In this document: in pieces, positions 2,844 to 42,522 of the stretch
How the letters are laid out: each line of letters starts with the position of its first letter
How positions within the stretch are numbered: the stretch's first letter is position 1
Source: a virus
Taxonomy: Duplodnaviria; Heunggongvirae; Uroviricota; Caudoviricetes
DNA: 44,793 nucleotides
Direction: 5' to 3' (one strand)
IMG/VR virus record: IMGVR_UViG_2974628062_000001
Coordinates: 1 to 44,793 of that record
Position numbers and translations under genes: made by a program
The notes under the pieces: generated by a model
What the model saw: the letters and a program-made list of their open reading frames with translations, nothing else
What the model was told of the DNA's origin: nothing
Database searches by the model: none

Positions 2844-3035
2844 TTAGACCTGTCGCTCATCATTAAAACGAAGAACAAAGCTGAAGTCATCTCCATTGAC
2901 GACTTCAAAATCGGTGTCCTCTGGCAAATCCTTAGTAAGCTCAACAAGCTCACGAAGGTCCTTTAGGCGGGTCTTTTCATCGAGAGTAAGCCAATACTTA
3001 CTCTTCAGGTTATAACCGACTGGAATTTTAATCAC
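2844..3035 (-). CDS. Hypothetical protein, ~63 aa (start codon uncertain)
   Basis: ORF track; GGAGGGAGGTGA SD overlaps the GTG. Confidence 0.7.
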   Translation of the reverse strand: MIKIPVGYNLKSKYWLTLDEKTRLKDLRELVELTKDLPEDTDFEVVNGDDFSFVLRFNDERQV

Positions 3036-3045
3036 CTCCCTCCGG

Positions 3046-3741
3046 TTATGACTTCTTAATGGTATCCATACAGATAGGGAAATGTTCGTGAGTTAGTTCC
3101 CAGACTGCCTTGGCATAATCCTGAATTTCCTTCTGAGCGTCATGCTCTAGCCTCTGGTGCAAGAAGTGAGTTACTGCACCTAGAGATACTGTCCAACGCC
3201 ATCTGACATATAGTCCGTAGGCTGGTAGGAATAGCCGGGCCTGTTCTGCACAAATACCGGCGTTCATTGCATCGTTGTACAGATTCTCACCCTTGGCCAG
3301 ATACGCTTCCAGAAGCCACGTAAAATTGTCTCCTGTCTCTGTATCTACCGGAACCCCAGAACCCTGCTTACGATTTTCTGGAGCGCTACGCCATTCATCA
3401 GCAAGGGGAACATAGAACTCAGGAACCTCAGTCACATAGCGACGACTGGATTCATTCCATCCATTCTGGTCCTCAAGATGGGTTGAGGCTACTGCGTACT
3501 TCCACCATTGTCTCGCTACGAAGAGTGGTGCATAAACCTCAAAAGTGAGAGCGGAATGACGGAACACCGAGCTGTGCTCTTCACGTTGAAGAAAGGCGAG
3601 AAGTCGGGCTTCTCTCTCTCCAAACTCTGCTGACTCCTTGGCGAAAGAAACCTTGGCCGAATTTACCGGGTCAAGGTCATCACCCATGTGCTTAATGTGT
3701 CTTACATAGCCCTTGTCAAGGACATCAATCTTATCGGTCAA
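3046..3741 (-). CDS. thyX: Flavin-dependent thymidylate synthase ThyX
   Basis: HSSVFRH, FEVYAPLFVARQWWK, WNESSRRY, AEQARLFLP and HAQKEIQDYA-type motifs of the ThyX family. Confidence 0.92.
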   Translation of the reverse strand: MTDKIDVLDKGYVRHIKHMGDDLDPVNSAKVSFAKESAEFGEREARLLAFLQREEHSSVFRHSALTFEVYAPLFVARQWWKYAVASTHLEDQNGWNESSRRYVTEVPEFYVPLADEWRSAPENRKQGSGVPVDTETGDNFTWLLEAYLAKGENLYNDAMNAGICAEQARLFLPAYGLYVRWRWTVSLGAVTHFLHQRLEHDAQKEIQDYAKAVWELTHEHFPICMDTIKKS

Positions 3742-3946
3742 GTACGTGCCTCATTAGTGTCTCGTGTGCGTTTACCATCTCGTACTTCTTACGAGCCTCA
3801 TCATAACCCGCCATAATCGCGTTGGCGAACCAGCTAGTCATCATAGCCTCGTCCATAATGTCGATTGGCTCATTCTGCCAAATCTCCATGAAATTCTTTG
3901 CCCAATACTGAGCGTCTGTGCTACTTGAATCAAACTTGTCTGCCAA
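3731..3946 (-). CDS. Hypothetical protein, 71 aa
   Basis: ORF track; TTG start with GGAG upstream; overlaps thyX start. Confidence 0.7.
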   Translation of the reverse strand: MADKFDSSSTDAQYWAKNFMEIWQNEPIDIMDEAMMTSWFANAIMAGYDEARKKYEMVNAHETLMRHVLDR

Positions 3947-4094
3947 GATTGTTCAACTCCCTTTTATACTCGTCAATCTTCTTCTGAGCGCGCTTTGCGC
4001 CTACAGAATCGCCATCCTTCTCACACTGTGACTTGATAGTCTCCTGTGCTCTGATTCCGGCGTTGATTCTCTCAGTCCTCTTCGCTAGGTCCAT
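3930..4094 (-). CDS. Hypothetical helical protein, 54 aa (MDLAKRTERINAGIRAQETIKSQCEKDGDSVGAKRAQKKIDEYKRELNNLGRQV)
   Basis: Read manually; GAGGAG SD upstream of ATG 4094; fills operon gap. Confidence 0.75.
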   Translation of the reverse strand: MDLAKRTERINAGIRAQETIKSQCEKDGDSVGAKRAQKKIDEYKRELNNLGRQV

Positions 4095-4209
4095 TGACAA
4101 TCTCCTCAAACTTCTCGGAGATATCAGCCTTTTCTTGAGTTACGTAGAAGGCCCCATCTTCGCTTTGCTCGATTGGAACCCCGTCGCTTCCAATGTAGAA
4201 GTTTCCCAC
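4072..4209 (-). CDS. Hypothetical acidic protein, 45 aa (MGNFYIGSDGVPIEQ...)
   Basis: C-terminal part of track ORF 4072..4323; GTG 4209 has AAGGAG SD. Confidence 0.6.
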   Translation of the reverse strand: MGNFYIGSDGVPIEQSEDGAFYVTQEKADISEKFEEIVNGPSEED

Positions 4210-4381
4210 TTTGTCTCCTTCTGGTAACAGTCCATCCGGCTTCTTGACATTGCCAGCATGGCTGGAATACATAGTTTTCAAGGTCAAGAACAGACTTACG
4301 CAATGAACAAACTGCGCAAGCATGGTCGTGGCTAACCCACGGTCCTCCGTCTGTCTTAATCCTTGGCTTATGCATCTTCAC
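4124..4381 (-). CDS. Small Cys4 zinc-finger protein, 85 aa
   Basis: CAVC...CWQC; GTGA overlap with upstream gene. Confidence 0.7.
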   Translation of the reverse strand: MKMHKPRIKTDGGPWVSHDHACAVCSLRKSVLDLENYVFQPCWQCQEAGWTVTRRRQSGKLLHWKRRGSNRAKRRWGLLRNSRKG

Positions 4382-4539
4382 TTATTAGGGTCCGTTCCAT
4401 TGAACTTGCCTTCTGTAAGTTCAATGAGCTTTTTGAAGGCTCTCTTACGACCTACTTCGTCGCCTCTCTCCTTCGCATCTTCATAACGACGGAACCAAAG
4501 TCTCTTGTCTTGATAGTACTTATCATTTTCATTAGGCAT
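4378..4539 (-). CDS. Hypothetical protein, 53 aa (MPNENDKYYQDKRLWFRRYEDAKERGDEVGRKRAFKKLIELTEGKFNGTDPNK)
   Basis: Read manually; GAGAG SD; coupled to both neighbours. Confidence 0.75.
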   Translation of the reverse strand: MPNENDKYYQDKRLWFRRYEDAKERGDEVGRKRAFKKLIELTEGKFNGTDPNK

Positions 4540-4744
4540 TATGTTCTCTCACCACCGCGCGAATTTGGTCATACAAGTCAAGTCCGGGCTGGATTCTCGT
4601 GTCACAGGACGGACACCACAGAACTGGCTCATCATCTGTTCCGAGCCTAGTGATTAGATGTCCTGTACAATCTGGACATTGCAAATGCTTTACCTTCCCG
4701 CCATCTGCTAGATGGCGGTACTCATGAAATACTGACCATTCCAT
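4532..4744 (-). CDS. Small zinc-ribbon protein, 70 aa
   Basis: CPDC...CPSC; ATG 4744 preferred over upstream TTG. Confidence 0.75.
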   Translation of the reverse strand: MEWSVFHEYRHLADGGKVKHLQCPDCTGHLITRLGTDDEPVLWCPSCDTRIQPGLDLYDQIRAVVREHNA

Positions 4745-4751
4745 AACGCAC

Positions 4752-4776
4752 AAAAACCACTACAAACTGTAGTGGT
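4752..4776 (-). terminator. Intrinsic terminator after the tRNA cluster
   Basis: Minus strand ACCACTACA-GTT-TGTAGTGGT then TTTT. Confidence 0.7.
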
Positions 4777-4809
4777 GATAGTTCTCCTTTTCTATCTAGT
4801 TTGTATAAG

Positions 4810-4882
4810 AGCCTAGTGTGGGAATCGAACCCACGACCTGTTCCGTACCAAGGAACTGTTCTACCACTGTCACTAACTAGGC
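4810..4882 (-). tRNA. tRNA-Thr(GGT), no encoded CCA
   Basis: Acceptor GCCTAGT/ACTAGGC, anticodon arm GTTCC-TTGGTAC-GGAAC, T arm GTGGG-TTCGATT-CCCAC. Confidence 0.92.
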
Positions 4883-4974
4883 AAGAGGTAAAGAGTGGGC
4901 AAAGCCGAGTCTTTACTCAAGTTTTATAAGCTTGGCGGTTCCCAAAAAGGAGAAGAAAAACGGAACCGCCTGCG

Positions 4975-5046
4975 AGCCAGATGACGGAATCGAACCGTCG
5001 ATAAGTCATTACGAAAGACTTGTGTTACCACTACAACTAATCTGGC
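4975..5046 (-). tRNA. tRNA-Thr(CGT), no encoded CCA
   Basis: Acceptor GCCAGAT/ATCTGGC, loop TTCGTAA with T-T mismatch at the top of the stem, T arm GACGG-TTCGATT-CCGTC. Confidence 0.85.
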
Positions 5047-5156
5047 ATATAGTCTGCCTCCCCTGCAACTAGGTACTACAGACAAGCCCCGGAGGACATT
5101 TCCTCGGAAGCAGAGGTACGGGTCGGTCGCATTCTCACCGCACGTACAACCAATTG

Positions 5157-5229
5157 AGCCGCCTGTCGGTCTCGAACCGACCACCTCTTGTTTACAAGAC
5201 AAGTGCTCTACCAGATGAGCTAAGGCGGC
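5157..5229 (-). tRNA. tRNA-Thr(TGT), no encoded CCA
   Basis: Acceptor GCCGCCT/AGGCGGC, D arm GCTC..GAGC, anticodon arm CTTGT-CTTGTAA-ACAAG, T arm GTCGG-TTCGAGA-CCGAC. Confidence 0.95.
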
Positions 5230-5298
5230 AATGCCAGTATATCACAACTGGCTAAGCTTAGGATAGTATTTATAGCCCCATCCCAAGGCGATAGAATC

Positions 5299-5328
5299 AT
5301 CTTAGCACGCGCTAGATGACATTGTCAA
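5299..5328 (-). promoter_or_regulatory. Promoter for the tRNA-Thr cluster
   Basis: Minus strand TTGACA-N18-TAAGAT with TGC extended -10. Confidence 0.75.
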
Positions 5329-5339
5329 GATTGTGGTAG

Positions 5340-6014
5340 TCAGTAGCCACACATCGGGGCGGTAACCCACTGATTGGCTCCACGACCATTATTCCACAAC
5401 TTCCAGAACGCTGCATCTTGCTGTGCGGGCGAATAGTTCATCGCCTTACCTGGAAGTCCAGTCACACCCTGCCAAGTAGAATCAAGGAACTGGTAAGCTC
5501 CCGATGCGCCAGAGCTTGGATTCAATGCTCTGTAGTTCCCACCTGACTCATGCTTCCGGATACACGCAGCAATTCCACCAGGAGCTACGTGATTATTGGT
5601 TGGTGCTTGGACCTTAGGCTTAGTTTCGACAGGCTTACGATTTACCTGACGAGCCTTCCTGGCCCTTTCGGCAGCAGCGGCTAGCTCCGCCTTCTGCCTT
5701 CTCTCTTTTGCCTCCGCTGCGGCCTGCTTTCGAGCCTTTTCTTCCTTGGCTCTCTTCTCGGCTTCAGCAATTTCGCGCATTCTCTTTTCGGCCTGAGCCT
5801 TTTGATTAGCACGCTTATCAATTGCCATCTGTTCCATTTCTGAAATCAATGGCTGCCGCGTTTCGTTTCTGGAAGCCCTATGGTCTTCCTCACCACGGTC
5901 CGACTGGCTGTCGGCTGCTACGACAGGTCTTTCTGTATTACTCTCCACGACTACAAAAGATGTAGTTCCTGCTACTGCAAGGATTGTGGCTAGTGTTGCG
6001 AATGTTCTCTTCAT
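5340..6014 (-). CDS. Secreted or membrane-anchored Rpf-like lytic transglycosylase with coiled-coil stalk
   Basis: Signal peptide MKRTFATLATILAVAG; A/E/K/R coiled coil; C-terminal lysozyme-like CIRKHESGGNY...GAYQFLDSTW...QQD...QW. Confidence 0.85.
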   Translation of the reverse strand: MKRTFATLATILAVAGTTSFVVVESNTERPVVAADSQSDRGEEDHRASRNETRQPLISEMEQMAIDKRANQKAQAEKRMREIAEAEKRAKEEKARKQAAAEAKERRQKAELAAAAERARKARQVNRKPVETKPKVQAPTNNHVAPGGIAACIRKHESGGNYRALNPSSGASGAYQFLDSTWQGVTGLPGKAMNYSPAQQDAAFWKLWNNGRGANQWVTAPMCGY

Positions 6015-6044
6015 GAGACCTCCTTTGTCAGCAACGATTCATCT

Positions 6045-6073
6045 AATGTACCAGAACTGTCACAGGAGCGCAA
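6045..6073 (-). promoter_or_regulatory. Leftward promoter for the Rpf-like gene
   Basis: Minus strand TTGCGC-N17-TACATT with TGG extension; AAGGAGG SD before ATG 6014. Confidence 0.6.
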
Positions 6074-6106
6074 CTACGATGTTGAAAAACCCGGCGGTCT
6101 TCTTAC

Positions 6107-6136
6107 TTGACAGCAAAGAGGTGAAGCTGTTAGTCT
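6107..6136 (+). promoter_or_regulatory. Rightward promoter for the glycosyltransferase genes (divergent from 6045-6073)
   Basis: TTGACA-N18-TAGTCT with TGT extension. Confidence 0.7.
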
Positions 6137-6176
6137 GTTATTACACTAGAAACAAAAGGAAGAAGAGTATCTACAA

Positions 6177-7172
6177 TTGAAAGTAAGTTATTATACAGTT
6201 AGAGGAGACTTGAGACCAGATAATGGTTTCGGTTATGCGGGAGAGAATATCCGCAGGAGTCTAACTAACCTTGGTCATGAGGTTACATTCCATGACGAAT
6301 CAGCGGATGTACAGATTGACTTCTGTCATCCGGTTTACTATGCCCATTTCCCTAGTCAATATAAGATTGGCTACTCACCATGGGAATCCTCAGCCTTGCC
6401 AGAAGGTTGGCTCAAGGGTTTTAATTCTGTAGATGAAGTTTGGGCTCCATCACAGAAGTGTAAAGAATGGTTTGAGGACGGTGGAGCTAAGAACGTCAAG
6501 GTCTATGAGCATGGTATCGAGCCTATTTGGTCTCCAAAACAAAGAAAGCCCCAACAGAAGGTAAAGTTTCTCCATATCGGAGAACCTGCACCACGTAAGG
6601 GCGGACAGCTTGCTCTTGAAGCGTTTGTAGAGGCTTTTGGAAACAATCCTAACGTACATCTTACCATTAAGGCTAACGGTCATAACACAACCCGCGCGTA
6701 TTGGTCAACCTTTCATCGCGGGGGTCCTCGCAGCATCCTTGGACTACCTCATCAGGTTTATCCAAATGTTACCGTTATCGAAGACTCTCTGTCTATCGAT
6801 GAGCTTGTAGGACTTTACCACAGCCACCATGCACTTGTCTACCCTTCTTGGGGAGAAGGCTTTGGCCTGATTCCTCTACAAGGGCTTGCAACAGGTATGC
6901 CTACTATTTGTACAGGAGCTTGGGCACCATATGAAAGATTCCTTGGTAATCTTTCACTGGATTCTCAGGAAGCTCTGACAAAGTGGCCAGACTTTCATCC
7001 TGGAATGATGTTCGAGCCAGATAGGCATCACCTAGTAGAACTCTACAGATACGTATATGAAAATTATGATGCCCTTTCCTTGCAATTCTTTGATAATGCT
7101 AAGGATGTGCATAGAGAATACAATTGGGATTCTCTTACAGAGAAGGCTTTTAAGCATTTGGAGAATAGATGA
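6177..7172 (+). CDS. Glycosyltransferase, GT-B fold (GT4-like), copy 1
   Basis: KFLHIGEPAPRKGG and LVYPSWGEGFGLIPLQGLATGMP (E-x7 GT4 signature region). Confidence 0.9.
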   Translation: MKVSYYTVRGDLRPDNGFGYAGENIRRSLTNLGHEVTFHDESADVQIDFCHPVYYAHFPSQYKIGYSPWESSALPEGWLKGFNSVDEVWAPSQKCKEWFEDGGAKNVKVYEHGIEPIWSPKQRKPQQKVKFLHIGEPAPRKGGQLALEAFVEAFGNNPNVHLTIKANGHNTTRAYWSTFHRGGPRSILGLPHQVYPNVTVIEDSLSIDELVGLYHSHHALVYPSWGEGFGLIPLQGLATGMPTICTGAWAPYERFLGNLSLDSQEALTKWPDFHPGMMFEPDRHHLVELYRYVYENYDALSLQFFDNAKDVHREYNWDSLTEKAFKHLENR

Positions 7173-8152
7173 AGATTTCTTTTCATACAGAAAGAGATAA
7201 TCTAGATACAACTCGCGGATATGGTTATGCAGGATTCAACATTGTGACCTCTTTGCAAAGACTTGGTCATGAAGTTCCTTTCGATGATGCTAGTGCACCT
7301 GTACAGATTTCATTGAACCCGCCGCACTGGTACAAGTTCAACGAAGGACAGTACCGTATCGGATACACGCCCTGGGAGTCAACAGTTCTTCCAGATGGAT
7401 GGCTGAAGGCCATGAACGATTGTGATGAGGTCTGGGCAACTTCAGAATGGGTTGCAAACGTCTATGAAATGGCGGGTGTCAAGAAGCCTATCCACGTATA
7501 TGAGCATGGCCTAGACAAAATGTGGAAGCCTCGCAGACGTAGAGCAGGAGAGGTCATCAAGTTTCTTCACATAGGTGAGCCTGCGTTGCGCAAGGGTGGA
7601 CAGATGACTGTTGAAGCCTTTCGGGAAGTCTTTGGAGACAGAGAAGATGTTCATTTGACCATCAAGGCTTATCATCAGCATTTTTTGCGGGTATGGAAGG
7701 ATGGAAAGATTACAACTCCAGATAAGGCATACAACAATGTAACTGTCATTACAGAGCAAATGCATTTGAATGAATTGCTGGAATTGTATTATGAACACGA
7801 CGTTCTTGTTTATCCATCATATGGTGAAGGATTTGGATTCATTCCGTTGCAGGCATTGGGAACTGGAATGCCAGTAGTTTCCACTCTGCAATGGGCACCT
7901 TACAGAAAGTTCATGGAGGAACTTCCAATTGGCACGCGACGTGACAGAAGCATTTGGGCTCTACATCCTGGGGACGTTCTATATCCTGACTACAGGCATC
8001 TCATGGGCCATCTCTACAACCTATCACGCAGAGAGGTGCTTGAAGAGCATCAGAAGCGATTCTTCCTGAGAGCCAATGAGGTTCACAAGGAATACGATTG
8101 GGACAGAAAGACAGAGAAAGCATTCTCCCATGTGGTCAGCAGGTTTACCTAA
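7169..8152 (+). CDS. Glycosyltransferase, GT-B fold (GT4-like), copy 2
   Basis: KFLHIGEPALRKGG and LVYPSYGEGFGFIPLQALGTGMP; collinear paralogue of copy 1; ATGA overlap. Confidence 0.9.
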   Translation: MKISFHTERDNLDTTRGYGYAGFNIVTSLQRLGHEVPFDDASAPVQISLNPPHWYKFNEGQYRIGYTPWESTVLPDGWLKAMNDCDEVWATSEWVANVYEMAGVKKPIHVYEHGLDKMWKPRRRRAGEVIKFLHIGEPALRKGGQMTVEAFREVFGDREDVHLTIKAYHQHFLRVWKDGKITTPDKAYNNVTVITEQMHLNELLELYYEHDVLVYPSYGEGFGFIPLQALGTGMPVVSTLQWAPYRKFMEELPIGTRRDRSIWALHPGDVLYPDYRHLMGHLYNLSRREVLEEHQKRFFLRANEVHKEYDWDRKTEKAFSHVVSRFT

Positions 8153-8176
8153 TCTTGACCTGAAAAGTAACTGAAA

Positions 8177-8201
8177 ACCCCCGCTCACTAAGGGCGGGGG
8201 T
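8177..8201. terminator. GC-rich hairpin between glycosyltransferases and RNR (terminator-like, weak + strand U-tract)
   Basis: ACCCCCGC-TCACTAAGG-GCGGGGGT; A-tract on the 5' side. Confidence 0.55.
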
Positions 8202-8232
8202 GTTACTATAGAAGAACCACAACATCTAGTAT
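8201..8232 (+). promoter_or_regulatory. Extended -10 promoter (TGTTACTAT) plus NrdR-box-like operator CCACAACATCTAGTAT
   Basis: Core CAACATCTAG fits the CwAnATnTwG core of the NrdR consensus acaCwAtATaTwGtgt; directly upstream of the RNR gene. Confidence 0.6.
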
Positions 8233-8267
8233 TAGGCCCGGCAGGGTCAGAAGGAGTTTTGCTTTTT

Positions 8268-10211
8268 ATGGATTTCATCGACGCTACGGGCCGTATCTCC
8301 GACCCATATCGTAACTTTATCCACTTGTCTCGCTATTCACGATGGCTAGAAGACGAGGGACGCAGAGAGACTTGGGTTGAGACTGTTAATCGCTATATGG
8401 ATTTCATGCTTGACCATCTGAAGAAGAACAACGGTTATGAGCCACCACAGGAGCATGTCAACCTGGTTCACAACTTTATTATGGAGCACCGCGCACTTCC
8501 ATCTATGCGTGCTCTAATGACAGCAGGACCCGCGCTTGAGCGCAATAACATTGCAGGATACAACTGTTCCTATGTAGTAGTTGACAACCCAGTAGCATTT
8601 GATGAGATTCTTTATATTCTTATGAATGGAACTGGAGTTGGATTCTCCGCAGAAGAGCGTTATGTATCTCAGCTTCCAGTAATTCCGCAGCTTCACGATT
8701 CTGATAACACCATTGTAGTAGAGGATTCCAAGGAGGGTTGGGCTCATGCCTACCACGACCTTGTTGCAGGTCTTTACAATGGAGTTATTCAGAAGTGGGA
8801 TGTTAGCAAGGTTCGACCAGCAGGCGCAAGACTTAAGACGTTTGGTGGTCGTGCATCAGGTCCCGCTCCACTAGTTGAGCTTTTCGAGTTCACCGTTTCA
8901 ACTTTCCTAAAGGCACAGGGCCGCAAGCTTACTGACCTAGAGGCTCACGACATTGTTTGTGAGATTGCAAGCGTTGTTGTAGTTGGTGGTGTTCGTCGTT
9001 CAGCCCTTATTTCCTTGGGTGACCTTGGTTCTGATGGACATCGTACAGCAAAGTCGGGAGCTTGGTGGGAGAAGAACGGTCAGCGTGCTCTAGCAAATAA
9101 CTCAGCGGTCTTTGATTCAAAGCCCAGCCGAGAGGTGTTCGACAATGAGTGGCAGGCTCTAATTGACTCTGGCTCGGGTGAGCGAGGCATCTTCAACCGA
9201 GAGGCATCACGTAAGCAGGCTGCGAAGTTTGGTCGTAGAAGTCACGATGTGGATTACGGAACGAATCCATGCAGTGAAATCATTCTCCGTCCAAATCAGT
9301 TCTGTAACCTATCAACTGTTGTAGTTGAGGCTGATGATACCTACATTGACCTAGCTGCTAAGGTTCGTGCAGCCACAATTCTTGGTACTTGGCAGTCCAC
9401 TTTGACTAACTTTAAGTACTTGCGACCATTGTGGAAGCAGAACACGGAGCAGGAAAGACTCCTCGGAGTTTCAATGACTGGTCCGTTCGGCAACAAGTTG
9501 CTTAATGGCACCATTTCATTCAGAAAGACAGAAGATATTCTGGTTTCTTTGCGTTTCGAGGCCGTAAAGACCAATCAGATTGTTGCGGATGACATTGGTA
9601 TTCCACGTTCTGCTGCTATTACTTGTGTAAAGCCAGAAGGAACGACATCACAGCTTACGCTAACATCTTCTGGATTGCACGCATGGCACAACGACGAGTA
9701 CATTCGTACTGTTCGTGGCGACCGAAAGGACCCGCTAAGTCAGTTCCTCATCGATTCAGGATTCCCTTATGAGCCTGATGTGATGAACCCAGAGAATACG
9801 GTTGTATTCTCCTTCCCAATCAAGGCTCCGGAGGGTGCAATCACCCGACACGAGCTTGATGCCAAGCGACACCTTGACCTATGGATGCTTTATCAGCGTG
9901 CATGGTGCGAGCACAAGCCTTCTGTCACGATTTATGTGAAGCCAGAAGAGTGGGACGAAGTTGGCGATTGGGTTTACGAGAACTTTGATGAGGTTTCTGG
10001 AATTTCCTTCCTTCCTCATTCAGAGCATACGTACCAGCAGGCACCATATCAGGACATTAGCACTCAGGAATACAATGAGTGGCTAGATAGAATGCCAAAG
10101 GATGTTGATTGGGACATGCTTTCCTCATACGAGGTAGAGGATACCACAACTGGAACGCAGGAGCTTGCTTGTACAGCAGGTGCTTGTGATGTAGTAGATA
10201 TCTCTAAGTGA
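8268..10211 (+). CDS. nrdJ: Class II adenosylcobalamin-dependent ribonucleotide reductase
   Basis: TNPCSEI, TCVKPEGTTSQL, C-terminal redox pair ACTAGAC; no small-subunit gene follows; ATG 8268 fits AAGGAG spacing better than TTG 8259. Confidence 0.92.
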   Translation: MDFIDATGRISDPYRNFIHLSRYSRWLEDEGRRETWVETVNRYMDFMLDHLKKNNGYEPPQEHVNLVHNFIMEHRALPSMRALMTAGPALERNNIAGYNCSYVVVDNPVAFDEILYILMNGTGVGFSAEERYVSQLPVIPQLHDSDNTIVVEDSKEGWAHAYHDLVAGLYNGVIQKWDVSKVRPAGARLKTFGGRASGPAPLVELFEFTVSTFLKAQGRKLTDLEAHDIVCEIASVVVVGGVRRSALISLGDLGSDGHRTAKSGAWWEKNGQRALANNSAVFDSKPSREVFDNEWQALIDSGSGERGIFNREASRKQAAKFGRRSHDVDYGTNPCSEIILRPNQFCNLSTVVVEADDTYIDLAAKVRAATILGTWQSTLTNFKYLRPLWKQNTEQERLLGVSMTGPFGNKLLNGTISFRKTEDILVSLRFEAVKTNQIVADDIGIPRSAAITCVKPEGTTSQLTLTSSGLHAWHNDEYIRTVRGDRKDPLSQFLIDSGFPYEPDVMNPENTVVFSFPIKAPEGAITRHELDAKRHLDLWMLYQRAWCEHKPSVTIYVKPEEWDEVGDWVYENFDEVSGISFLPHSEHTYQQAPYQDISTQEYNEWLDRMPKDVDWDMLSSYEVEDTTTGTQELACTAGACDVVDISK

Positions 10212-10225
10212 ATTTTGCATTAAGA

Positions 10226-10251
10226 CCCGGCCAGAAATGGCCGGGCTTTTT
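10226..10251 (+). terminator. Intrinsic terminator after RNR
   Basis: CCCGGCCA-GAAA-TGGCCGGG then CTTTTT. Confidence 0.85.
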
Positions 10252-10278
10252 GTTTTATTGAAGCTTTGGCGCTATACT
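10250..10278 (+). promoter_or_regulatory. Endolysin promoter overlapping the terminator U-tract
   Basis: TTGTTT-N17-TATACT; GGAGGAGGTGA SD downstream. Confidence 0.65.
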
Positions 10279-10301
10279 ATATGGAGGAGGTGAAAGATAA
10301 T

Positions 10302-11318: not shown

Positions 11319-11324
11319 TATAAT
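11296..11324 (+). promoter_or_regulatory. Near-consensus promoter in the 3' end of the endolysin gene
   Basis: TTGACG-N17-TATAAT. Confidence 0.8.
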
Positions 11325-11330
11325 CTAAGT

Positions 11331-11431
11331 ACAGCTTATGGAAATGAGTCCGAGCTGTCTGGCGACATTCGTGCCGCTAGCTTAGGATGTTTATACTTAC
11401 CGACTAACCCCTGCCGAAAGGCGGGGGTTTT
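11331..11431 (+). ncRNA. Candidate ~100-nt structured small RNA
   Basis: Predicted TSS at the base of hairpin ACAGCUU...GAGCUGU; second hairpin CUGGCG-A-CA-UUCG-UG-C-CGCUAG; ends in a GAAA-loop terminator; no credible ORF with SD. Confidence 0.65.
11406..11431 (+). terminator. Intrinsic terminator of the candidate sRNA / endolysin transcript
   Basis: AACCCCTGCC-GAAA-GGCGGGGGTT then TT. Confidence 0.85.
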
Positions 11432-11458: not shown

Positions 11459-11467
11459 TTAATTACC

Positions 11468-32861: not shown

Positions 32862-32864
32862 TAT

Positions 32865-32893: not shown

Positions 32894-32900
32894 TAATGAC

Positions 32901-34171: not shown

Positions 34172-37100
34172 GTAGAATCCTTCTAAGAGACCTAGAGCCA
34201 GGAAGACTATATCACATTCAGGCAAGAGCAACGAATGGTGAGCAGTCTTCTCAGTGGTCACAGCTTTGGGACCTTCAGACAACCAGTGACATTTTGCCAC
34301 CAGCCGCACCTACGGGCCTTTCTTGGGTCGTTGAAGGTACGGCATTCAAGGCTGTCTGGACAGGTCCAACCCTAAATCAGGATGGCTCTGACCTTCGGGA
34401 CTTCAAGGATTTCCAGGTCAAGATTTATTCTCCAGCAGCTCCCGGAACAATTGTCACGTACTACACGACTTCTGCACGATTTGATTTGCCATTTGAGAAC
34501 AACGTGAACTCTTTTGGTGTTCCTCGTGCCCAGGTGACAATTGAGGTCAGGGCTAGAGACAATACCGGAAATCTCTCAACGGCTGCAACCGCTACTGCGA
34601 CAAACCCACCACCAGCAAATGTTTCTGGATTCACAGCAACAGGAATTACAGATGCTATTGCTATTAAGTGGAATGCCAATGCAGATACCGACCTTAAGCA
34701 TTACAAGGTTTGGCAGGGAACTGCGGCGGGGTCTGAGAATACACTCGTATACACAGGTCTAGCTACCTCATTCGTATACGATACCCTGTCAATTTCACCT
34801 CAGTACTTCAAGATTGTAGCAGTTGACGTATTCAATTCAGAGTCAGCAACAGCGGCAACAGCCAGCGCAACTGCTAAGTCTTCCCTAGCCGTAGATGGAA
34901 CACCTCCTGCCGCTCCAACTGGAGTAACTGTCACATCATCACTTGACACATCTGACCCTTCTGGAGGAAGGGCTTACATTGACGTGTCTTGGACAGGTGT
35001 AGCAGATACAGACCTACAGAATTACAGCGTTCGATACAGCACTGGAACCACCTGGGAATACATTGATGTTCCTGAGGGAGTTACCACTGCACGAATTAAT
35101 GGCTTGCGACCAAACACTAATTACAATGTGGCAGTCGCAGCAGTTGACTATTCTGGTAATTCAAGCTCTTATGTGAATGCTGGAACCTATCCTATTCTGA
35201 CAGCCAAGGACACAACAGCCCCAGCAGCGCCAACCGGAGTAACAGTTGGCGCGGGTGTGACAACCGTGACTGTTGCTTGGACAGAAAACACAGAAAACGA
35301 CGTAAAGAACGGTGTCGGTACTTATGAAGTACAGCTAGACACTGTTAACACATTCAACTCTGGTAATCTCGTGACCAAGCAGAATTCAGGTACGATTGTA
35401 GCATTCACCAATCTGACATCTAACACGACCTACTATGCAAGGGTTCGTGCAATTGATGCTACTGGAAACGCCGGGTCTTATTCATCAATTGTTTCTGGTA
35501 CTCCACGATATGTAGCCAATGCTGATATTCAGGCGGGTACCATCAATGGTGACAAGATTACTGCCGCAACGCTTTCTGGTGACCGTGTAATCGCCAACAG
35601 CCTTGATGCGAATACCATCAAGGCCAATACGACGTTCTCTCAGAACCTCAACGTTGGAAGTACCTTCACCATGGCTGCCAGTGGAATTATGAAGAGCAGC
35701 AATTATGTTGCGGGTTCTGCGGGATGGCAGCTAACAAATACTACTCTTGAAATTAATCAGGGTACCATCAAGGCAGCGGCCCTTCAGCTTCAGAACGGTC
35801 ATAACATGCTTCACCCAGCCTATGCAGACTGGGAATTTGTGAAGTCATGGTACACAACGAACCTTATCACCTTCAATGATGGTGGTGTTTCAACGTGGGC
35901 TATTTCAGATGCTACAGATGTTGTCGGAAAGTATAACACCCAGTGCATCAAGACTTCTTGGACTGGTGTTGGAACGTTCTCAAGGACTTACATGGGACCA
36001 ACATTCACCAGTTACAATGTCCAGCTTGAAGCAAATACGGATTACATCTTCTCTGGTTGGGTTTATGTAAAGACTGGAGCGGGTGCGAAAACAGCAGCTC
36101 TAGGAATTAAGCTAGCTGACGCATCATTCCCAGGTCCAGTAGCAAATACTTCAATTCCAGCTACCTCAACATGGACTCGTATTTGGGGTACATTCAATTC
36201 GGGTACGCAGACAAGTGCAGAGCTTTACCTTTCCCAGTACACATCTGGAGATATGTACTGGGACGGTCTACAGCTTGAAAAGAAGGTTACTGCTGACACA
36301 GTTCCATCTCAGTGGAAGCCACCAGGTTCTACATCTATCGATGGTGGAATTATCCGAACCGGTGAAATTCGCTCAACAGCTTCAGCAAGCGGTCTTTCAG
36401 GGCAGCCAGCATGGTCAATTAACATGGCTGGTAATGCCCAGCTTGGTGATGCCAACATTCGCGGTCGTCTTGTTGTCGGAGATTTGAGCAATCCATCAGC
36501 AGATGGTGTGAACTCAAAGATTCAGTCAGCGAATTACGCTGCTGGAACTACCGGATGGGTCATTCGTAATGACGGTTATGCAGAATTCCGTCAGCTAGCT
36601 GTTAACTCAATCAAGGTTACTGCATTTGACTCACCATTCCAGAATACTGCGAATGCGAAGCTATTTGATTACATGCAGGATGCTAATCTATGGCTTCAGA
36701 GTGGTTCTGTTCAGCAGAAGACTGACCCTGGTGCTTACTCCGCTGAATCCCTATTCGAATTTACCGGGCCGGGATTGGTATTGAGAAATGGTACTGGTGT
36801 TAAGCCTATCGCTTATGACCCAACCATTCTCTACCGTATTTCAGCTCGTGTGCGTGCCTTTACAGTTTCTACCCTGAACAGCAATGGTACATTTGAGGGC
36901 AACAATACAACCGGATGGACTGTTGATGCAACAAACGGTGCAACCATTGCGGCAAGCAACACCTATGCAAGCACGGGAACATACTCAATGAGAATGACTT
37001 CTGGTGCCTCAACTGGTGCTTCGTATCGCGCATGGACAAACGTCCTTGTAAAGCCTGGTTACAACTACACCATTAACGCCAAGGTAAAGGCGATGCTACA

Positions 37101-40100
37101 GGCGGCATACTACAACGCCACAAACTACGGGAACATCGAGCTAAGAGTCACGTGGTTTGGAACCGGCGGGTATCTTGATGAGAGCATTCAGCTTATCACT
37201 CCACCAGTAGATGCTAATGGTGTTATCCTTACCGCACCAACAGATTGGTTCTCAATTGGCGCTACATTCACTGCACCTGCAAATGCAACGAACGCAAACT
37301 TCATCATCCGCCTTGCGAGATATGACAATGTTACTGCGGGAACTGTAATCGGATACATTGATGATGTAGCTGTTACCACACCACCAAGAATTAAGCTTGG
37401 TCTATTTGGTATGGATAATGGCAATAACTTCATTGATTATGACTTTATTGATGATGCAACAACACCAACAAAGAAGCATCCAATGCCTTCGGATTACAGC
37501 ACTATGGCAGCGTACTCTTCAAGTCAGTACATGCTTGTGGCTGACAATGTTGAAGTTCCAATTGCCACAGGTGGGTCAAGTACAACTTCCGACTGGATTA
37601 CTCTTACGGGATATATGAAGGGTCGTGGTGGTTCTGGAGCAACTGGTAAGTTCGGTAAGGCGGGAATGTTCCTTGATGAGTATAACCCTTCATCATTCAA
37701 CCAGGAAGTTCGATTCATGGTTCCTTATGTTGAATTCGATACCGCACCAGGTTCTATTGCTCAGCTTGACCAGTTCTCTATTGAATCATATGAGTCTGGA
37801 GCTGTAGCCAAGGTAGATACCACTGGTAATAGTGAGAGCATGAAGTCTGTATCCATCGAAAACATTCAGGATGGTACAGAGTTTGACCACGCTCTTAGAT
37901 TCTACACTGGTGAGGTTGACGAAAAGAAGCCGGGTCTGATTGGTCATATCACAGATGGTGAAACCAATGACGCTGCTCACCTCAGAATTGTACCACCACT
38001 TCTTAACAGTTTGAGTGGGTACAATGAGGGACCTTACATTGGAATCTGGGACCAGAATCCAAACTATCTGTACGATGCATCATTCCAGACTGGAATTTCC
38101 GGATGGACTGGAATGGCTAACACGACACTTTCTTGGAATGAGACTGTTGGTCGTGAAGATAGTTCATGTCTTCAAATTCAGGCAATCGGAACAATCTCTA
38201 ATCCAGCAACTACAGAGCTTTTGGGTAAGTACCAGGTTTCTGTTCTTGGTAATCAGGAATTGGTCGGACAGAAGGTAACTGTCTCTGGTTATGCAATGAT
38301 GGGAACTGCTACAGGAAGAAATGTTCGTCTCGTAGTTAAGTTCCTTGATGAAGCAGGCGCAATGCTGAATGGATACTTTATTGAAAAGGCTGTCACTAAC
38401 AGCGACTGGACGTATTACGCTTTTGTAACTCCGATTGTTGTCCCTGATACATGCTACACAATTGAGTTCTCATTCAGTTGGTTTAATGGTGCTACTGGAG
38501 ATATTGTTTATGTAGAAGATGTCCAGCTTGAGGCAAATGATAAGAAGACCGACTTCCGTTCGGGTTCTGCAAGCAAGATTGAACTGAATGCAGAAACAAT
38601 TAGAAGTCGTGGCTCTATCATCATTGCTGAGAATGATTTCCAGCTTCCATCACCAATTATTGGTGGAACTGGAAAGCCAGATTCTCCAGGCTATAAGAGT
38701 ATTATTGCCCAGGGAGAATCTGGTACTGGTGCTATGCGTCTAGTAAACTACACAGACACGAATGGAACAAGAGTCTCTTGGACATCAACGTTCTTTGGCA
38801 GTGATGGAACAGAAGAGTCTGGTCTGGTAATTTATGGTATGGCGGACGGTTCATTCCCAGGAAGAATGGCCATGAGAAGTCCAAATGGAAGCTGGGCTCT
38901 TTCTACTCAGCCTGCGACCGATGGAAGCTATCCATACGATGTTCATATTCATGGCTCTCTAATTGTCGATGGTCAGCTTCAGTGGGTTCCATTGACCTCA
39001 AGTGCTGTGACTCCGTTTGACTCCGGACGTGCTCTTGGTGTTGCCAAGATTAACAATATGCTGGTATTCCGTGGAGCAGGTTCTTGGTCTGGAACAGCGG
39101 GTGCTTCTGGAACGGTAATCTTTACTCTTCCAGTAGGATACCGACCTTCAAGCCCTCAGTATATGTGTGCTCTTATGTGGAACGGTAACTCGTGGTCATC
39201 TGGTGTGGCTTTCCACGTAAAGACTAGTGGTGAATGTATTCTATGGTCTCCTCCTGAGGGCGCTGGTCTTGGTACCTCACTTTCGATTGAGGGATTGCAG
39301 ATGAATCTATCAGCTATGCCTACAACATCAACTCCAGGTACAGATACAACAGCCCCATCAGCACCTACCGGATTCAGCATTTCTGCTGTATCATCCGGAA
39401 CATCAACAGGGTCTTACAAGCTTGCTTGGACAAATCCTAGCGCTTCTGATACTGCTGGTGTTAAGGTCATTTGGAGGTCTGACCGTTATCCGACCGTAAC
39501 AATTGCGGGTTCTGGTACAAAGACCTTGACAACCGATGGTACTGTGATTACGGTTACTGGCTCAGCTTCACAGGCAAAGACCTACACGCACTCAGGTCTT
39601 CCAGTGAACAAGACAATTTACTACCGCGTGGTTTCTTACGACAAGTCTGGTAACCACTCAACATATGTGAGCGCTTCTAGATACCTTCTGGCAAGCCCTA
39701 TCACCATCTCACCATCTAGCTCTGGTTCGTACCGTCTAGGTTACGGAGGTATGTGGCGAAACGATGGTGATGAAGTTTACCAGGGTGACTGGACTGGAAA
39801 CGACAACCATCGAGGATTGTATTTCTATGGCTCTAATATCTATAGCAAGTTGGCAACTGGTGGTGTTGTTCGTACTCCAACCAAGATGACTATTTACCTA
39901 AAGAGACTAAGCACCTCTCATGGTAATAACGCCGGGGTCGGAATCAATCTTCGTGGTCACAAGTATCAGACAAAGCCTTCTGGAGACCCAGTTGGTTCTA
40001 TGACAAATGAGGGAAGCGCTGGAGATAACATTGTTTACCTAAGTCGCGGTGAGGCAGCTACGGTAACGGTTCCATCTTCATGGTACAATAACTTTGTAGT

Positions 40101-40233
40101 CGCAGACCCGAACAACACAGACCGACTAGAAGGTATCGGTGTTTATGGTAGCTCAACCTCAGACTATGCGGTACTCTACGGTAAGTCCAGTGGTTCAAGT
40201 TACGGAAAGCTAACCATCTACCACAAGGGTTGA
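34168..40233 (+). CDS. Giant tail fibre / receptor-binding protein with multiple Fn3 and carbohydrate-binding-like domains, 2021 aa
   Basis: Repeated TPPAAPTGV/L Fn3 starts; three CBM-like blocks (HPAYADWEF, NGTFEGNNTTGW, DASFQTGISGW); two SxNYxAGxxGW repeats. Confidence 0.88.
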   Translation: MSRILLRDLEPGRLYHIQARATNGEQSSQWSQLWDLQTTSDILPPAAPTGLSWVVEGTAFKAVWTGPTLNQDGSDLRDFKDFQVKIYSPAAPGTIVTYYTTSARFDLPFENNVNSFGVPRAQVTIEVRARDNTGNLSTAATATATNPPPANVSGFTATGITDAIAIKWNANADTDLKHYKVWQGTAAGSENTLVYTGLATSFVYDTLSISPQYFKIVAVDVFNSESATAATASATAKSSLAVDGTPPAAPTGVTVTSSLDTSDPSGGRAYIDVSWTGVADTDLQNYSVRYSTGTTWEYIDVPEGVTTARINGLRPNTNYNVAVAAVDYSGNSSSYVNAGTYPILTAKDTTAPAAPTGVTVGAGVTTVTVAWTENTENDVKNGVGTYEVQLDTVNTFNSGNLVTKQNSGTIVAFTNLTSNTTYYARVRAIDATGNAGSYSSIVSGTPRYVANADIQAGTINGDKITAATLSGDRVIANSLDANTIKANTTFSQNLNVGSTFTMAASGIMKSSNYVAGSAGWQLTNTTLEINQGTIKAAALQLQNGHNMLHPAYADWEFVKSWYTTNLITFNDGGVSTWAISDATDVVGKYNTQCIKTSWTGVGTFSRTYMGPTFTSYNVQLEANTDYIFSGWVYVKTGAGAKTAALGIKLADASFPGPVANTSIPATSTWTRIWGTFNSGTQTSAELYLSQYTSGDMYWDGLQLEKKVTADTVPSQWKPPGSTSIDGGIIRTGEIRSTASASGLSGQPAWSINMAGNAQLGDANIRGRLVVGDLSNPSADGVNSKIQSANYAAGTTGWVIRNDGYAEFRQLAVNSIKVTAFDSPFQNTANAKLFDYMQDANLWLQSGSVQQKTDPGAYSAESLFEFTGPGLVLRNGTGVKPIAYDPTILYRISARVRAFTVSTLNSNGTFEGNNTTGWTVDATNGATIAASNTYASTGTYSMRMTSGASTGASYRAWTNVLVKPGYNYTINAKVKAMLQAAYYNATNYGNIELRVTWFGTGGYLDESIQLITPPVDANGVILTAPTDWFSIGATFTAPANATNANFIIRLARYDNVTAGTVIGYIDDVAVTTPPRIKLGLFGMDNGNNFIDYDFIDDATTPTKKHPMPSDYSTMAAYSSSQYMLVADNVEVPIATGGSSTTSDWITLTGYMKGRGGSGATGKFGKAGMFLDEYNPSSFNQEVRFMVPYVEFDTAPGSIAQLDQFSIESYESGAVAKVDTTGNSESMKSVSIENIQDGTEFDHALRFYTGEVDEKKPGLIGHITDGETNDAAHLRIVPPLLNSLSGYNEGPYIGIWDQNPNYLYDASFQTGISGWTGMANTTLSWNETVGREDSSCLQIQAIGTISNPATTELLGKYQVSVLGNQELVGQKVTVSGYAMMGTATGRNVRLVVKFLDEAGAMLNGYFIEKAVTNSDWTYYAFVTPIVVPDTCYTIEFSFSWFNGATGDIVYVEDVQLEANDKKTDFRSGSASKIELNAETIRSRGSIIIAENDFQLPSPIIGGTGKPDSPGYKSIIAQGESGTGAMRLVNYTDTNGTRVSWTSTFFGSDGTEESGLVIYGMADGSFPGRMAMRSPNGSWALSTQPATDGSYPYDVHIHGSLIVDGQLQWVPLTSSAVTPFDSGRALGVAKINNMLVFRGAGSWSGTAGASGTVIFTLPVGYRPSSPQYMCALMWNGNSWSSGVAFHVKTSGECILWSPPEGAGLGTSLSIEGLQMNLSAMPTTSTPGTDTTAPSAPTGFSISAVSSGTSTGSYKLAWTNPSASDTAGVKVIWRSDRYPTVTIAGSGTKTLTTDGTVITVTGSASQAKTYTHSGLPVNKTIYYRVVSYDKSGNHSTYVSASRYLLASPITISPSSSGSYRLGYGGMWRNDGDEVYQGDWTGNDNHRGLYFYGSNIYSKLATGGVVRTPTKMTIYLKRLSTSHGNNAGVGINLRGHKYQTKPSGDPVGSMTNEGSAGDNIVYLSRGEAATVTVPSSWYNNFVVADPNNTDRLEGIGVYGSSTSDYAVLYGKSSGSSYGKLTIYHKG

Positions 40234-40260
40234 CAAGACCGGGTGTCTTGTGTTTATAAT
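40230..40260 (+). promoter_or_regulatory. Consensus -35/-10 with a 19-nt spacer containing an inverted repeat
   Basis: TTGACA-N19-TATAAT; ACAAGAC-CGGGT-GTCTTGT at 40233-40251. Confidence 0.5.
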
Positions 40261-40287
40261 ATTCAAAGAGAGAAAAGAGTAAAAGAA

Positions 40288-40521
40288 TTGAATCAAGTTA
40301 AGAAGTTGGAACTAACTATTCAGGCTCTTAAGCAGAGTCTAGGAAGTAAGGTAGCTAATGCTGAAGAGGAAATTGCCAGCATTAGAGCCGAAGCGTCTCT
40401 CCTGCTTGAAGAGCAGGCTGAGCAAATTGCCAAGAAGGAAGAGCGAATCTCCGAACTTGAGAATGAGCTTAAGCAGCTTAAGGGAGAGGACGATGTGGCC
40501 GTTCCGTCAGAAGACGCCTGA
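40288..40521 (+). CDS. Small coiled-coil protein, 77 aa (possible fibre chaperone)
   Basis: TTG 40288 preferred; heptad pattern. Confidence 0.7.
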   Translation: MNQVKKLELTIQALKQSLGSKVANAEEEIASIRAEASLLLEEQAEQIAKKEERISELENELKQLKGEDDVAVPSEDA

Positions 40522-40900
40522 CCTGCCACCTATTCCTCAAACTCGTACGGATTACCCATATGGCCTCTTTGTTTGCACTGAGGCCGGGTTTTTCTTTATC
40601 AGAGAAAAGGGTAGGTATCGAATCCCAACTGTCAGAGTGATGGCTAGTTGGTCTGCGCCTAGTGTATCATCTAGTGAAGCAGCCGTTAAGCATCTGCCCA
40701 TCCTTGGCAAGATTGGTTTCAGAGACGGTACCATTATCCAGGACTTCTCCAATCAGAAGACATACCTTATCTCTAGAAATAAGAGAAGGCAAATTGTTTC
40801 TCCTGATGTGTTTGATAAGTTCCTCTTGAATAAGGAATTGATTGTCGTAGTTTCCCATGAGGAAGCAAATCTACACGAGGATGGGGAGGTGTTGAGTTAA
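40493..40900 (+). CDS. Hypothetical protein of two tandem ~55-aa repeats, 135 aa
   Basis: ATG 40493 with GGAGAGGA SD; repeats FFIREKGRYRI... and YLISRNKRRQI... Confidence 0.75.
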   Translation: MWPFRQKTPDLPPIPQTRTDYPYGLFVCTEAGFFFIREKGRYRIPTVRVMASWSAPSVSSSEAAVKHLPILGKIGFRDGTIIQDFSNQKTYLISRNKRRQIVSPDVFDKFLLNKELIVVVSHEEANLHEDGEVLS

Positions 40901-41340
40901 TGGCTGTATCATCATTTAAGGATGTCAACTGGGGTGCCAATGAGTACCTAGCAACTGACAAGTTGAATACCATGGTTTCCAATACCAGATACCTATTTGA
41001 GAGAGCACCGAAGTTGTATTACAACTCGTATTCAATCAAGAAGGATACTGGAATTAAGATTGCTTGTGGTACCGCGACAATTGCACCAAGTAAGGCTCAC
41101 TATTACAAGAAGACAATCAATTTTGGTTCATTCTTCACTGTAGGGTCTAAGCCTGTAATTGTCACAAGTGTTACTTCTCCATATAACCGTAGAATTATCC
41201 TTTCTCATTATGGAATTCAGGGAGAGGGATATGTTCCTGACCACCGAGGTTTCATCGTGGTTGGAGCTACTGCAACTCTAGAGAAGTCTCACTATCTATC
41301 AAAGCAGATTTACATTAATTGGATTGCAATGGGTTACTAA
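40900..41340 (+). CDS. Small tail-fibre-like protein, 146 aa
   Basis: VNWGANEYLATDKLN N-terminus and IACGT...INFGSFF...INWIAMGY C-terminus, typical of tail-fibre tip domains. Confidence 0.65.
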   Translation: MAVSSFKDVNWGANEYLATDKLNTMVSNTRYLFERAPKLYYNSYSIKKDTGIKIACGTATIAPSKAHYYKKTINFGSFFTVGSKPVIVTSVTSPYNRRIILSHYGIQGEGYVPDHRGFIVVGATATLEKSHYLSKQIYINWIAMGY

Positions 41341-41360
41341 ACTTGGAAGGACGTGTGTCT

Positions 41361-41642
41361 ATGAGGTATACTCCACTACAGAGGTGGCATAGACGCGACC
41401 GGAGGCGTAATACGAACGGATACGTTCTTGTTTGGGTTCCGGAACATCCAAAAAGCTTTTCCGGCGGGTGGTACTATGAACATAGGCTCGCAGCCGAGAA
41501 GCTGGTGGGTCGGATTTTGAAATCTTGGGAGACTGTCCACCATATCTCTGGTGACAAGACAGACAATTCGTGGGAGAATCTGTTCATCTGTACCCGGAAG
41601 GAACACGACCGAGCAGACAGGTTGACACCGCAGCTTGTGTAA
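41361..41642 (+). CDS. HNH endonuclease (HNH_3 type), 93 aa
   Basis: YEHRLAAE...VHHISGDKTDNSWENL...H. Confidence 0.85.
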   Translation: MRYTPLQRWHRRDRRRNTNGYVLVWVPEHPKSFSGGWYYEHRLAAEKLVGRILKSWETVHHISGDKTDNSWENLFICTRKEHDRADRLTPQLV

Positions 41643-41706
41643 GATAGACTGATGTGACTGAAGAGGACTGGGAGACCGGTCCTCTTTGGCATTGAGAGGA
41701 GAAAAT

Positions 41707-42522
41707 ATGAAATGGGCATTCGTAGGAGACCTACAAATTCCTTATCACGATAAGCGTGCAGTTGCGCTTTTCCTAAAGGTGATGAAGTCATGGAAGCCAG
41801 ATGCTCTAGACTTCCTTGGTGACATCGATGACCAGCTAGAGTATAGCAGCTTTTCCGATGGAACTACAGATGAGTTCTTTAGTCAGCTAAAGAAGAATAA
41901 GCAAGAGGAAGGCGAGTCGGACGAAGATTTTCGTCGTAGGCTTTCCCCGCTTCCCTTCGTAAAGGAAAATGCGGCGGGTGCTAAGGAATTCTATACCGAT
42001 GTTCGCAACGTCTTGCAGAAGGCAGACATTCATGCTAGCCTAGGCAATCATGATATCCGCATCTTCAAGTACATGGACAAGAAGGCTCCAGACTATGTGC
42101 AGGAGCTAACGCCTAATATGCTCTGGGGTCTCGATGACCTAGGTATTACATGGAGGCACTACGATTTGCCTCCGCTACATAGATTCGGCGGGATTCATGT
42201 TCATCACGGAGCAACCACTACAACTACAGGTCTAGCCGTAAAGGCAGACATCGACAACTACAACATCTCTCTTGCGAGAGGGCATGACCATCGTGGTGGT
42301 GTAGTATATAAGACATACCCCATGACAGGGACTACACTGGTGGGTCTTGGTGCTGGTCACCTCTGTGACCCAAGTGCATATGGTCTCAGATATACTATCA
42401 ATCCTTCGTGGGAACTCGGATTTGGAATTGGCCATGTAATTGATAATGTCGCTACACTCCAGTTCATTCCAATTTCACGAGATTACGTCTGCGTGGTTGA
42501 CGGCAAGGTTTTCAAGGGATAA
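41707..42522 (+). CDS. Calcineurin-like metallophosphoesterase
   Basis: GDLQ, GDIDD, LGNHD, HHG, GHDH motifs; GAGGAG SD before ATG 41707. Confidence 0.88.
   Translation: MKWAFVGDLQIPYHDKRAVALFLKVMKSWKPDALDFLGDIDDQLEYSSFSDGTTDEFFSQLKKNKQEEGESDEDFRRRLSPLPFVKENAAGAKEFYTDVRNVLQKADIHASLGNHDIRIFKYMDKKAPDYVQELTPNMLWGLDDLGITWRHYDLPPLHRFGGIHVHHGATTTTTGLAVKADIDNYNISLARGHDHRGGVVYKTYPMTGTTLVGLGAGHLCDPSAYGLRYTINPSWELGFGIGHVIDNVATLQFIPISRDYVCVVDGKVFKG

Follow-up and report, generated by a model that had tools for sequence, protein, structure and literature searches.

A strand-polar G/C-rich word written into the genes of Stanwilliamsviridae phages: a candidate lagging-strand priming signal

The locus and its dispersed heptamer

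The window analyzed here spans bases 1-44,793 out of the 130,473 bp of a virus record (IMGVR_UViG_2974628062_000001) which carries direct terminal repeats of about 0.79 kb and whose closest relatives, at about 90% identity, are the Streptomyces phages Limpid, Annadreamy and Beuffert (Annadreamyvirus, Loccivirinae, Stanwilliamsviridae); we take the phage to belong to cluster BK1 in PhagesDB naming. Genes point leftward up to about 6 kb and rightward beyond, and from 44.4 kb on they encode a helicase, a primase, SSB, DnaE, a RecA-like protein, an exonuclease and resolvases. The subject of this report is the heptamer GGCGGGT, which is scattered through these genes (Table 1) and is one form of a longer, strand-polar signal. 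This feature is real, selected at the DNA level and family-wide.

A first-pass annotation of the window had listed 16 copies on the plus strand, all of them with exact coordinates, and four on the minus strand, which were likewise recovered, one of them at 3806 instead of near 3807. Dinucleotide shuffles of the window gave 2.14 ± 1.30 copies over the two strands combined (at most 6 in any of 100), so that the over-representation holds and the background of about two copies per strand assumed earlier was, if anything, generous. Half of the plus-strand copies (8/16) extend to SCGGCGGGT, where S is G or C, and the related words GCCGGGT (8 plus, 3 minus) and CCGGCGG (11 plus, 0 minus) recur in the window, as had been observed. 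Genome-wide, the heptamer is present in 53 plus-strand and 12 minus-strand copies and is the top 7-mer against Markov models of orders 1-3 (65 versus 8.4 at order 2). Nine of these 65 copies sit in the stems of intergenic hairpins in the right arm, several of them within hairpin-AAGCTT elements, and none of the window copies does.

All 20 window copies are located inside open reading frames (ORFs), 17 in sense and three in antisense orientation (2966, 7317 and 11591). The sense copies occupy two reading frames, nine as GGC GGG T and eight as G GCG GGT, and they draw on codons that are each the rarest of their set (GGG, 7.4% of Gly codons; GCG, 14% of Ala codons), in agreement with the first-pass annotation. 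The enrichment persists under codon- and dinucleotide-preserving randomization: in three synonymous-codon shuffles of the coding sequences (CDS) of the genome, one of which also preserves the codon-junction dinucleotide, 37 sense copies were found against 4.3, 6.1 and 5.9 expected (9-13 at most in 60) and six antisense copies against two, and GGCGGGT ranked first or second among 7-mers each time. Genes for these shuffles were called with a simple caller which misses some small genes, such as ORF 41319-41642.

A degenerate motif with fixed polarity and variable endings

Hill-climbing against shuffled genes established that GGCGGGT is the commonest form of a degenerate 8-mer, S-S-S-S-G-G-(G/T/A)-T, hereafter SSSSGG-D-T. 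In full, the signal is a stretch of seven to eight G/C bases, the last two of them GG, plus two further bases which differ by lineage and are, in BK phages, G/T/A and then T. Enrichment is present in all three frames (37/5.3, 60/14.4 and 31/11.5 observed over expected) and depends on the number of S bases before GG, being absent at 0-2, 1.3-fold at three, 2.1-fold at four, 5.3-fold at five, 4.8-fold at six and lower beyond; a length threshold of the same shape is found in BE phages. While only part of the sites are in common with relatives (59 of 102 with Limpid, 24 of 94 with Faust), fourfold-degenerate G/C positions are better conserved inside motifs than outside in four comparisons (0.76 versus 0.56; 0.50 versus 0.32), which indicates that density, rather than position, is conserved. 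An apparent compensatory gain of sites near lost ones (p=0.003 versus Limpid) was gone after register-shifted sites had been excluded (p=0.18-0.68). Collectively, the codon shuffles, the fourfold-site conservation and the all-frame enrichment support the earlier proposal that selection acts on DNA rather than on protein.

In the 14-105 kb region of BK genomes, plus-strand sites are 0.6-0.9 kb apart, with a coefficient of variation (CV) of 0.77-0.86 versus 0.99 for random placement. Gaps of the broad motif are likewise more even than random in most genomes (CV 0.70-0.86 versus 0.97-0.99, p<=0.02); for the exact heptamer alone, evenness of spacing is not significant (p=0.08-0.48). The mean gap ranges from 0.6 to 1.5 kb across genomes and is about 0.8 kb in the studied phage, on the scale of Okazaki fragments, which measure 1-2 kb (PMC2978363). 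By chance, a genome of 48% GC would hold one site per ~2.8 kb.

The orientation of the motif is organized along the chromosome in two fields which overlap (Table 1). Pooled over five BK genomes, sense sites in the middle region number 567 against 166 expected and antisense sites 90 against 105 (0.85-fold), whereas antisense sites reach 42 against 15.5 (2.7-fold) in plus genes left of 13 kb and are enriched about 3.3-fold at 124-130 kb. Since these genomes are related and share sites by descent, which overstates pooled p-values, ratios are relied upon here. BE phages have the same design, their minus sites extending a few kb beyond the transcription switch. The co-orientation with transcription reported for the window thus stands as a count (17 of 20 sense), while orientation itself follows genome position and departs from transcription both in the 6-14 kb region and close to the right end. 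That the strand changes at 6-14 kb whatever the gene strand argues that the signal tracks chromosome position, as a replication signal would. A search for an iteron array as an origin mark at 4-14 kb found none.

Among relatives, the exact heptamer is kept in Faust (48 plus, 14 minus) and Circinus (40 plus, 6 minus), while Samisti12, Karimac and Grayson have it at background level. The S-run and GG core is constant and the last two bases vary, being GT, TT or AT in BK phages, TA, CA or TG in BE1, TG or CG in BE2 and GA or GG in others, so that each lineage has its own dialect. The top word is SSCCGG-Y-R in BE1 phages and SSCCGG-Y-G in Karimac, Tomas and Coruscant, one relative uses CCGGGA, and example template words, dialect forms included, are CGGCGGGT, GGCCGGTA and CCCGGTG. 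GT follows SSSSGG 47-71 times versus 7-23 expected in six BK genomes and 13 times versus 41 in nine BE genomes. As several of these BK and BE phages were isolated on the same S. griseus strain, such mutually exclusive dialects point to a phage-encoded reader. Of 69 loci from viruses and metagenomes, chosen around the primase gene, 40 have more S5GG than any of 20 shuffles, and clade-specific endings (TA, TG, GT/TT, GA/GG) have changed several times on the tree.

The signal is weaker in the Rhodococcus phages Trina, Grayson and Weasels2. In Grayson and Weasels2, the top codon-independent 7-mer is CTCTGAG (18 versus 3 and 22 versus 3), which is unrelated to the motif. Low-GC aquatic relatives with the same primase family over-use CTGGA beyond codon usage (365 versus 218), possibly a shortened dialect.

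Table 1. Positions, in window coordinates, of the heptamer copies, the fields of the broad motif and the genes of two candidate readers
Feature	Position	Strand	Context
GGCGGGT	1213..1219	-	sense in leftward gene, GGC GGG T
GGCGGGT	2966..2972	+	antisense in leftward gene
GGCGGGT	3806..3812	-	sense in leftward gene, GCG GGT
GGCGGGT	7317..7323	-	antisense within rightward glycosyltransferase gene
GGCGGGT	7471..7477	+	sense, GCG GGT
GGCGGGT	11591..11597	-	antisense within rightward gene
GGCGGGT	12968..12974	+	sense, GGC GGG T
GGCGGGT	16896..16902	+	sense, capsid maturation protease gene
GGCGGGT	18711..18717	+	sense, head-to-tail adaptor gene
GGCGGGT	24948..24954	+	sense, tape measure gene
GGCGGGT	25407..25413	+	sense, tape measure gene
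GGCGGGT	28095..28101	+	sense, tape measure gene
GGCGGGT	31299..31305	+	sense, minor tail gene
GGCGGGT	32148..32154	+	sense, minor tail gene
GGCGGGT	33568..33574	+	sense, minor tail gene
GGCGGGT	33866..33872	+	sense, minor tail gene
GGCGGGT	35532..35538	+	sense, minor tail gene
GGCGGGT	37165..37171	+	sense, minor tail gene
GGCGGGT	41463..41469	+	sense, ORF 41319-41642 matching HNH endonuclease of Limpid
GGCGGGT	41973..41979	+	sense, metallophosphoesterase gene
Leftward-pointing SSSSGG-D-T field	392..14291	-	15 sites in 14.3 kb (3 in hairpins) versus 5 in the other 30.5 kb (2 in hairpins)
Rightward-pointing SSSSGG-D-T field	6718..44760	+	36 sites; lone plus site left of 6718 at 499, in the terminal repeat
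Overlap zone	6088..14291	.	both orientations enriched; putative replication initiation zone, from the motif
C5 cytosine methyltransferase-like gene	1621..2331	-	rival reader; in 36/36 close BK records, absent from tested BE phages
DnaB-like helicase gene, 5' part	44441..44793	+	next genes, outside the window: DnaG-type primase (genome 45892-46989; candidate reader), SSB, DnaE

Candidate readers of the signal

Among the roles offered by the first-pass annotation, a replication-polarity signal, most likely read by a primase, fits best; host Chi or KOPS-type sites, a translocase signal and a methyltransferase target fared poorly, and a nucleoid-protein site is unlikely given the polarity. That the word works as a replication-polarity signal of some kind, a Chi-like one included, is probable. 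The more specific proposal, to which we give about an even chance, is that it marks the lagging-strand priming sites of the phage DnaG primase. Forks would start in the 6-14 kb zone. For the rightward fork, the plus strand would be the lagging template and plus sites would be needed, a site 5'-SSSSGG-x-Z-3' templating a primer from GG or T toward the S-run; the leftward fork would need minus sites up to the left end and, via the 0.79-kb terminal repeat on circles or concatemers, partly into the right end. The zinc domain of the primase may read the two 3' bases, and the primer, of G/C only and ~7-8 nt long (pppCC(C/G)..., or pppA-N-CC... if started opposite T), would be stable enough for hand-over to DnaE. 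Since chance sites are so sparse, synonymous codons would have been bent to raise their density to the Okazaki scale.

The enzyme in question is a protein of 365 amino acids which combines a CHC2 zinc domain (Pfam zf-CHC2) with a Toprim core, matches the DnaG proteins of A. aeolicus, S. aureus and B. subtilis by sequence and fold, and is encoded between DnaB upstream and DnaE downstream. A CX4C zinc pair is present in every aligned primase of the family, the more distant Cantare enzyme having CX2C. Its TOPRIM region carries a conserved CRKC...C.GH insert, likely a second metal site, which is found in the Streptomyces phage members and missing in the Rhodococcus phage members. The protein ends shortly after TOPRIM, and no bacterial-type helicase-binding domain was detected in it. 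The ~400-bp gap between the SSB and DnaE genes (genome 47812-48218) is kept in 12 of 12 metagenome loci and, in the studied genome, overlaps a possible small HNH-like ORF (47838-48173).

Which 3' cryptic base a DnaG primase requires in its site is decided by the zinc domain (PMC2978363); this 3' end is also the varying end of the phage word. Known sites are 5'-(G/T)2GTC in T7, CTG in E. coli and CTA in S. aureus (PMC2978363, PMC12839067), and in T7 the strand that carries the priming sites changes at an origin close to the left end (PMC12839067). Like these systems, the phage signal is polar, lies on the inferred lagging template, switches strand close to the left end (as T7 does), varies in its 3' base, has Okazaki-scale spacing and belongs to a phage which encodes a DnaG primase. 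It differs from them in having eight informative positions versus three to five, a GC-only 5' run and probably no purine start. How a primase chooses among many short sites, and how Okazaki length is controlled, are open questions even in T7 and E. coli (PMC12839067).

Another parallel is plant (Arabidopsis) Twinkle, which primes at 5'-(G/C)GGA-3' with two cryptic bases and a CTP start, with a preference for G/C primers and an expanded zinc pair of the CX4C type (PMC5737085). Common to both systems are an S-G step with two bases 3' of it, primers rich in G/C within an AT-rich genome and a CX4C second zinc pair, and some relatives of the phage use a GA dialect. However, the phage primase and helicase are separate genes, the zinc finger is of the CHC2 type, the S-run is longer and there are several dialects, the phage side being known from sequence alone. 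The Twinkle parallel is a resemblance and not a test.

Several observations weigh against the primase as reader. A purine start opposite a template pyrimidine, with one cryptic 3' base, fits the BE word (GG-Y-R), whereas the BK word GG-(G/A)-T and the GA/GG dialects would require Twinkle-like priming or a start at the last T, so that the model leans on the Twinkle precedent. Residue 69 of the zinc loop had seemed to track dialect in the first 76 sequences, but when 12 new contigs were used to test the advance prediction that His69 goes with the D-T dialect, it failed (about four right): three non-His primases had that dialect and two His primases lacked it. A column scan of the primase and 13 neighbouring proteins found no single residue which cleanly predicts dialect, a rule of several residues being conceivable, and as the replication genes mostly follow one tree, the dialects do not set the primase apart from the rest of them. 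The primase is also carried by Dorin and by a low-GC freshwater clade, both of which lack the S-run signal. Priming sites of T7 are barely enriched on the lagging template (161 versus 136 ± 8), only 1.2-fold, versus three- to nine-fold against codon usage for the phage word, and those of SP6 show no enrichment. Finally, any link between the word and the primase comes from sequence comparison, the origin is placed by the motif alone, and the same polarity would be shown by a Chi-like signal or by a loading site of some other phage protein.

The latter alternative, a polar signal read by another replication or recombination protein of the phage, be it a Chi-like stop, a RecA-loading site for the exonuclease/RecA pair or a helicase-loading site, is unlikely, though the likeliest of the rivals. 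The genome encodes RecA-like, PD-(D/E)XK exonuclease, resolvase and DprA-like proteins, and dialects track the recombination genes as well as the primase. However, a 5' part made of any G/C run with a length threshold is more suggestive of hybrid stability than of a protein-read word, an exonuclease of 269 amino acids would probably leave no room for a fused motor, and Chi would not require an even spacing near 0.8 kb.

Single-strand nick sites in packaged DNA, as in T5, phiKMV and tf, are improbable. Both kinds of signal are short, dispersed, oriented words of lytic phages, the major T5 nick consensus R/GCGCRGG (PMC3517423) resembles the S-run and GG core, and the phages studied here are likewise large, tRNA-rich and terminally repeated. 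Known nick words nevertheless occupy one strand only, at similar positions among relatives (PMC3517423), whereas the phage signal has more than 100 sites, uses both strands by region and turns over fast. In the same test, T5 lacks a dense oriented signal (SSSSGG 79/76 on plus, 78/72 on minus), and SP6, Bxz1 and T4 have no SSSSGG signal either. In T4, GGTTC (178 versus 113) and CGGT (370 versus 266) exceed expectation on the sense strand alone, and GTT, the priming trinucleotide of T4, is part of GGTTC.

We consider it slightly less probable still that the word is a target of phage DNA modification, by the C5 methyltransferase or by glycosyltransferases. The methyltransferase gene is a core gene of all BK records and is absent in the tested BE phages, which matches the presence of the exact heptamer, but BE phages without this gene still have the analogous signal, polarity, even spacing or enrichment would not be expected of modification targets, and the C-to-T variant GGTGGGT is at expectation (19 versus 17.6). 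Moreover, restriction sites such as GATC, CTGCAG and CAGCTG are purged to about zero, so that the DNA is not broadly protected. Such purging of restriction-type sites is seen in the genome CDS and in relatives (GATC-containing hexamers, CTGCAG, CAGCTG, GAGCTC and CTCGAG, 0 versus 20-45 expected), and the asymmetric CTGAAG/CTTCAG is additionally purged in BK2 and BE phages, suggesting lineage-specific exposure to a non-palindromic defence. The methyltransferase-like protein (1621-2331, minus strand) is short (236 amino acids), its Pfam DNA_methylase match being confined to the first 80 residues.

An RNA-level or transcription signal on the coding strand, such as a pause or processing site, has an equally small probability: copies are mostly sense and some exact heptamers lie in the hairpin stems mentioned above, but outside hairpins, antisense copies exceed expectation in plus genes, both at 6-14 kb and at 110-130 kb.

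Marginally less probable again, and in large part already refuted, is a site for proteins of the host, namely AdpA, host Chi, or the FtsK-orienting polar sequences (KOPS) and TraB recognition sequences (TRS). The AdpA consensus is TGGCSNGWWY, which GGCGGGT(T) fits, and the host may impose a need for GC-rich runs; yet other compatible words are flat (GGCS[ACT]GW, 1.0-fold), the full consensus is at 1.3-fold in sense and 0.7-fold in antisense, the word is preceded by C rather than T (11.3-fold versus 2.9-fold), and sites are inside genes. With Chi and KOPS/TRS motifs, the signal shares over-representation, orientation with replication and a density kept amid turnover of positions. It differs from them by its degenerate S-run, by dialects which are exclusive among phages of one host strain, and by the lack of a match in the host chromosome: in a 400-kb sample of one species, S. 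venezuelae, the heptamer is under-represented (153 versus 207-274) and distributed 55 leading to 98 lagging, against 85:25 for the control word GGGGGAG. No FtsK/TraB translocase (PF01580) was found in the studied genome or four relatives. GGGGGAG, with its leading-strand skew in S. venezuelae, is itself a KOPS-like host word.

A codon-pair or peptide artefact, conceivable as Ala-Gly and Gly-Gly are frequent in tail proteins, is refuted by the three codon shuffles and by a word which is found in all frames, in the rarest codons and in position-dependent antisense copies, and it retains a negligible probability. In the genome CDS, the Leu codon TTA is essentially unused, ATA is below 1% and AGGAGG/GAGGAG are depleted within genes; the avoidance of TTA fits its being the bldA-dependent codon of Streptomyces.

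Implications for phage replication

No description of this signal was found in the searchable literature, outside which subscription papers mostly lie. Our broader and tentative proposal, at somewhat less than an even chance, is that Stanwilliamsviridae and many uncultured relatives possess a primase with an unusually long, GC-run-dependent site, whose dialects co-evolve with the replisome and whose sites map origin and fork direction from sequence. If so, a site this long would oblige selection to write priming sites into genes, and the dialects would restrict the exchange of replication genes between lineages. The sites would also provide the first replication map for large Streptomyces phages. 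With closely related primases and at least four genome-visible dialects, these phages form a natural series which makes specificity directly testable, and synonymous recoding of their genomes could remove needed signals. Should the reader not be the primase, the word would still be an undescribed, phage-private polar signal maintained across a whole family.

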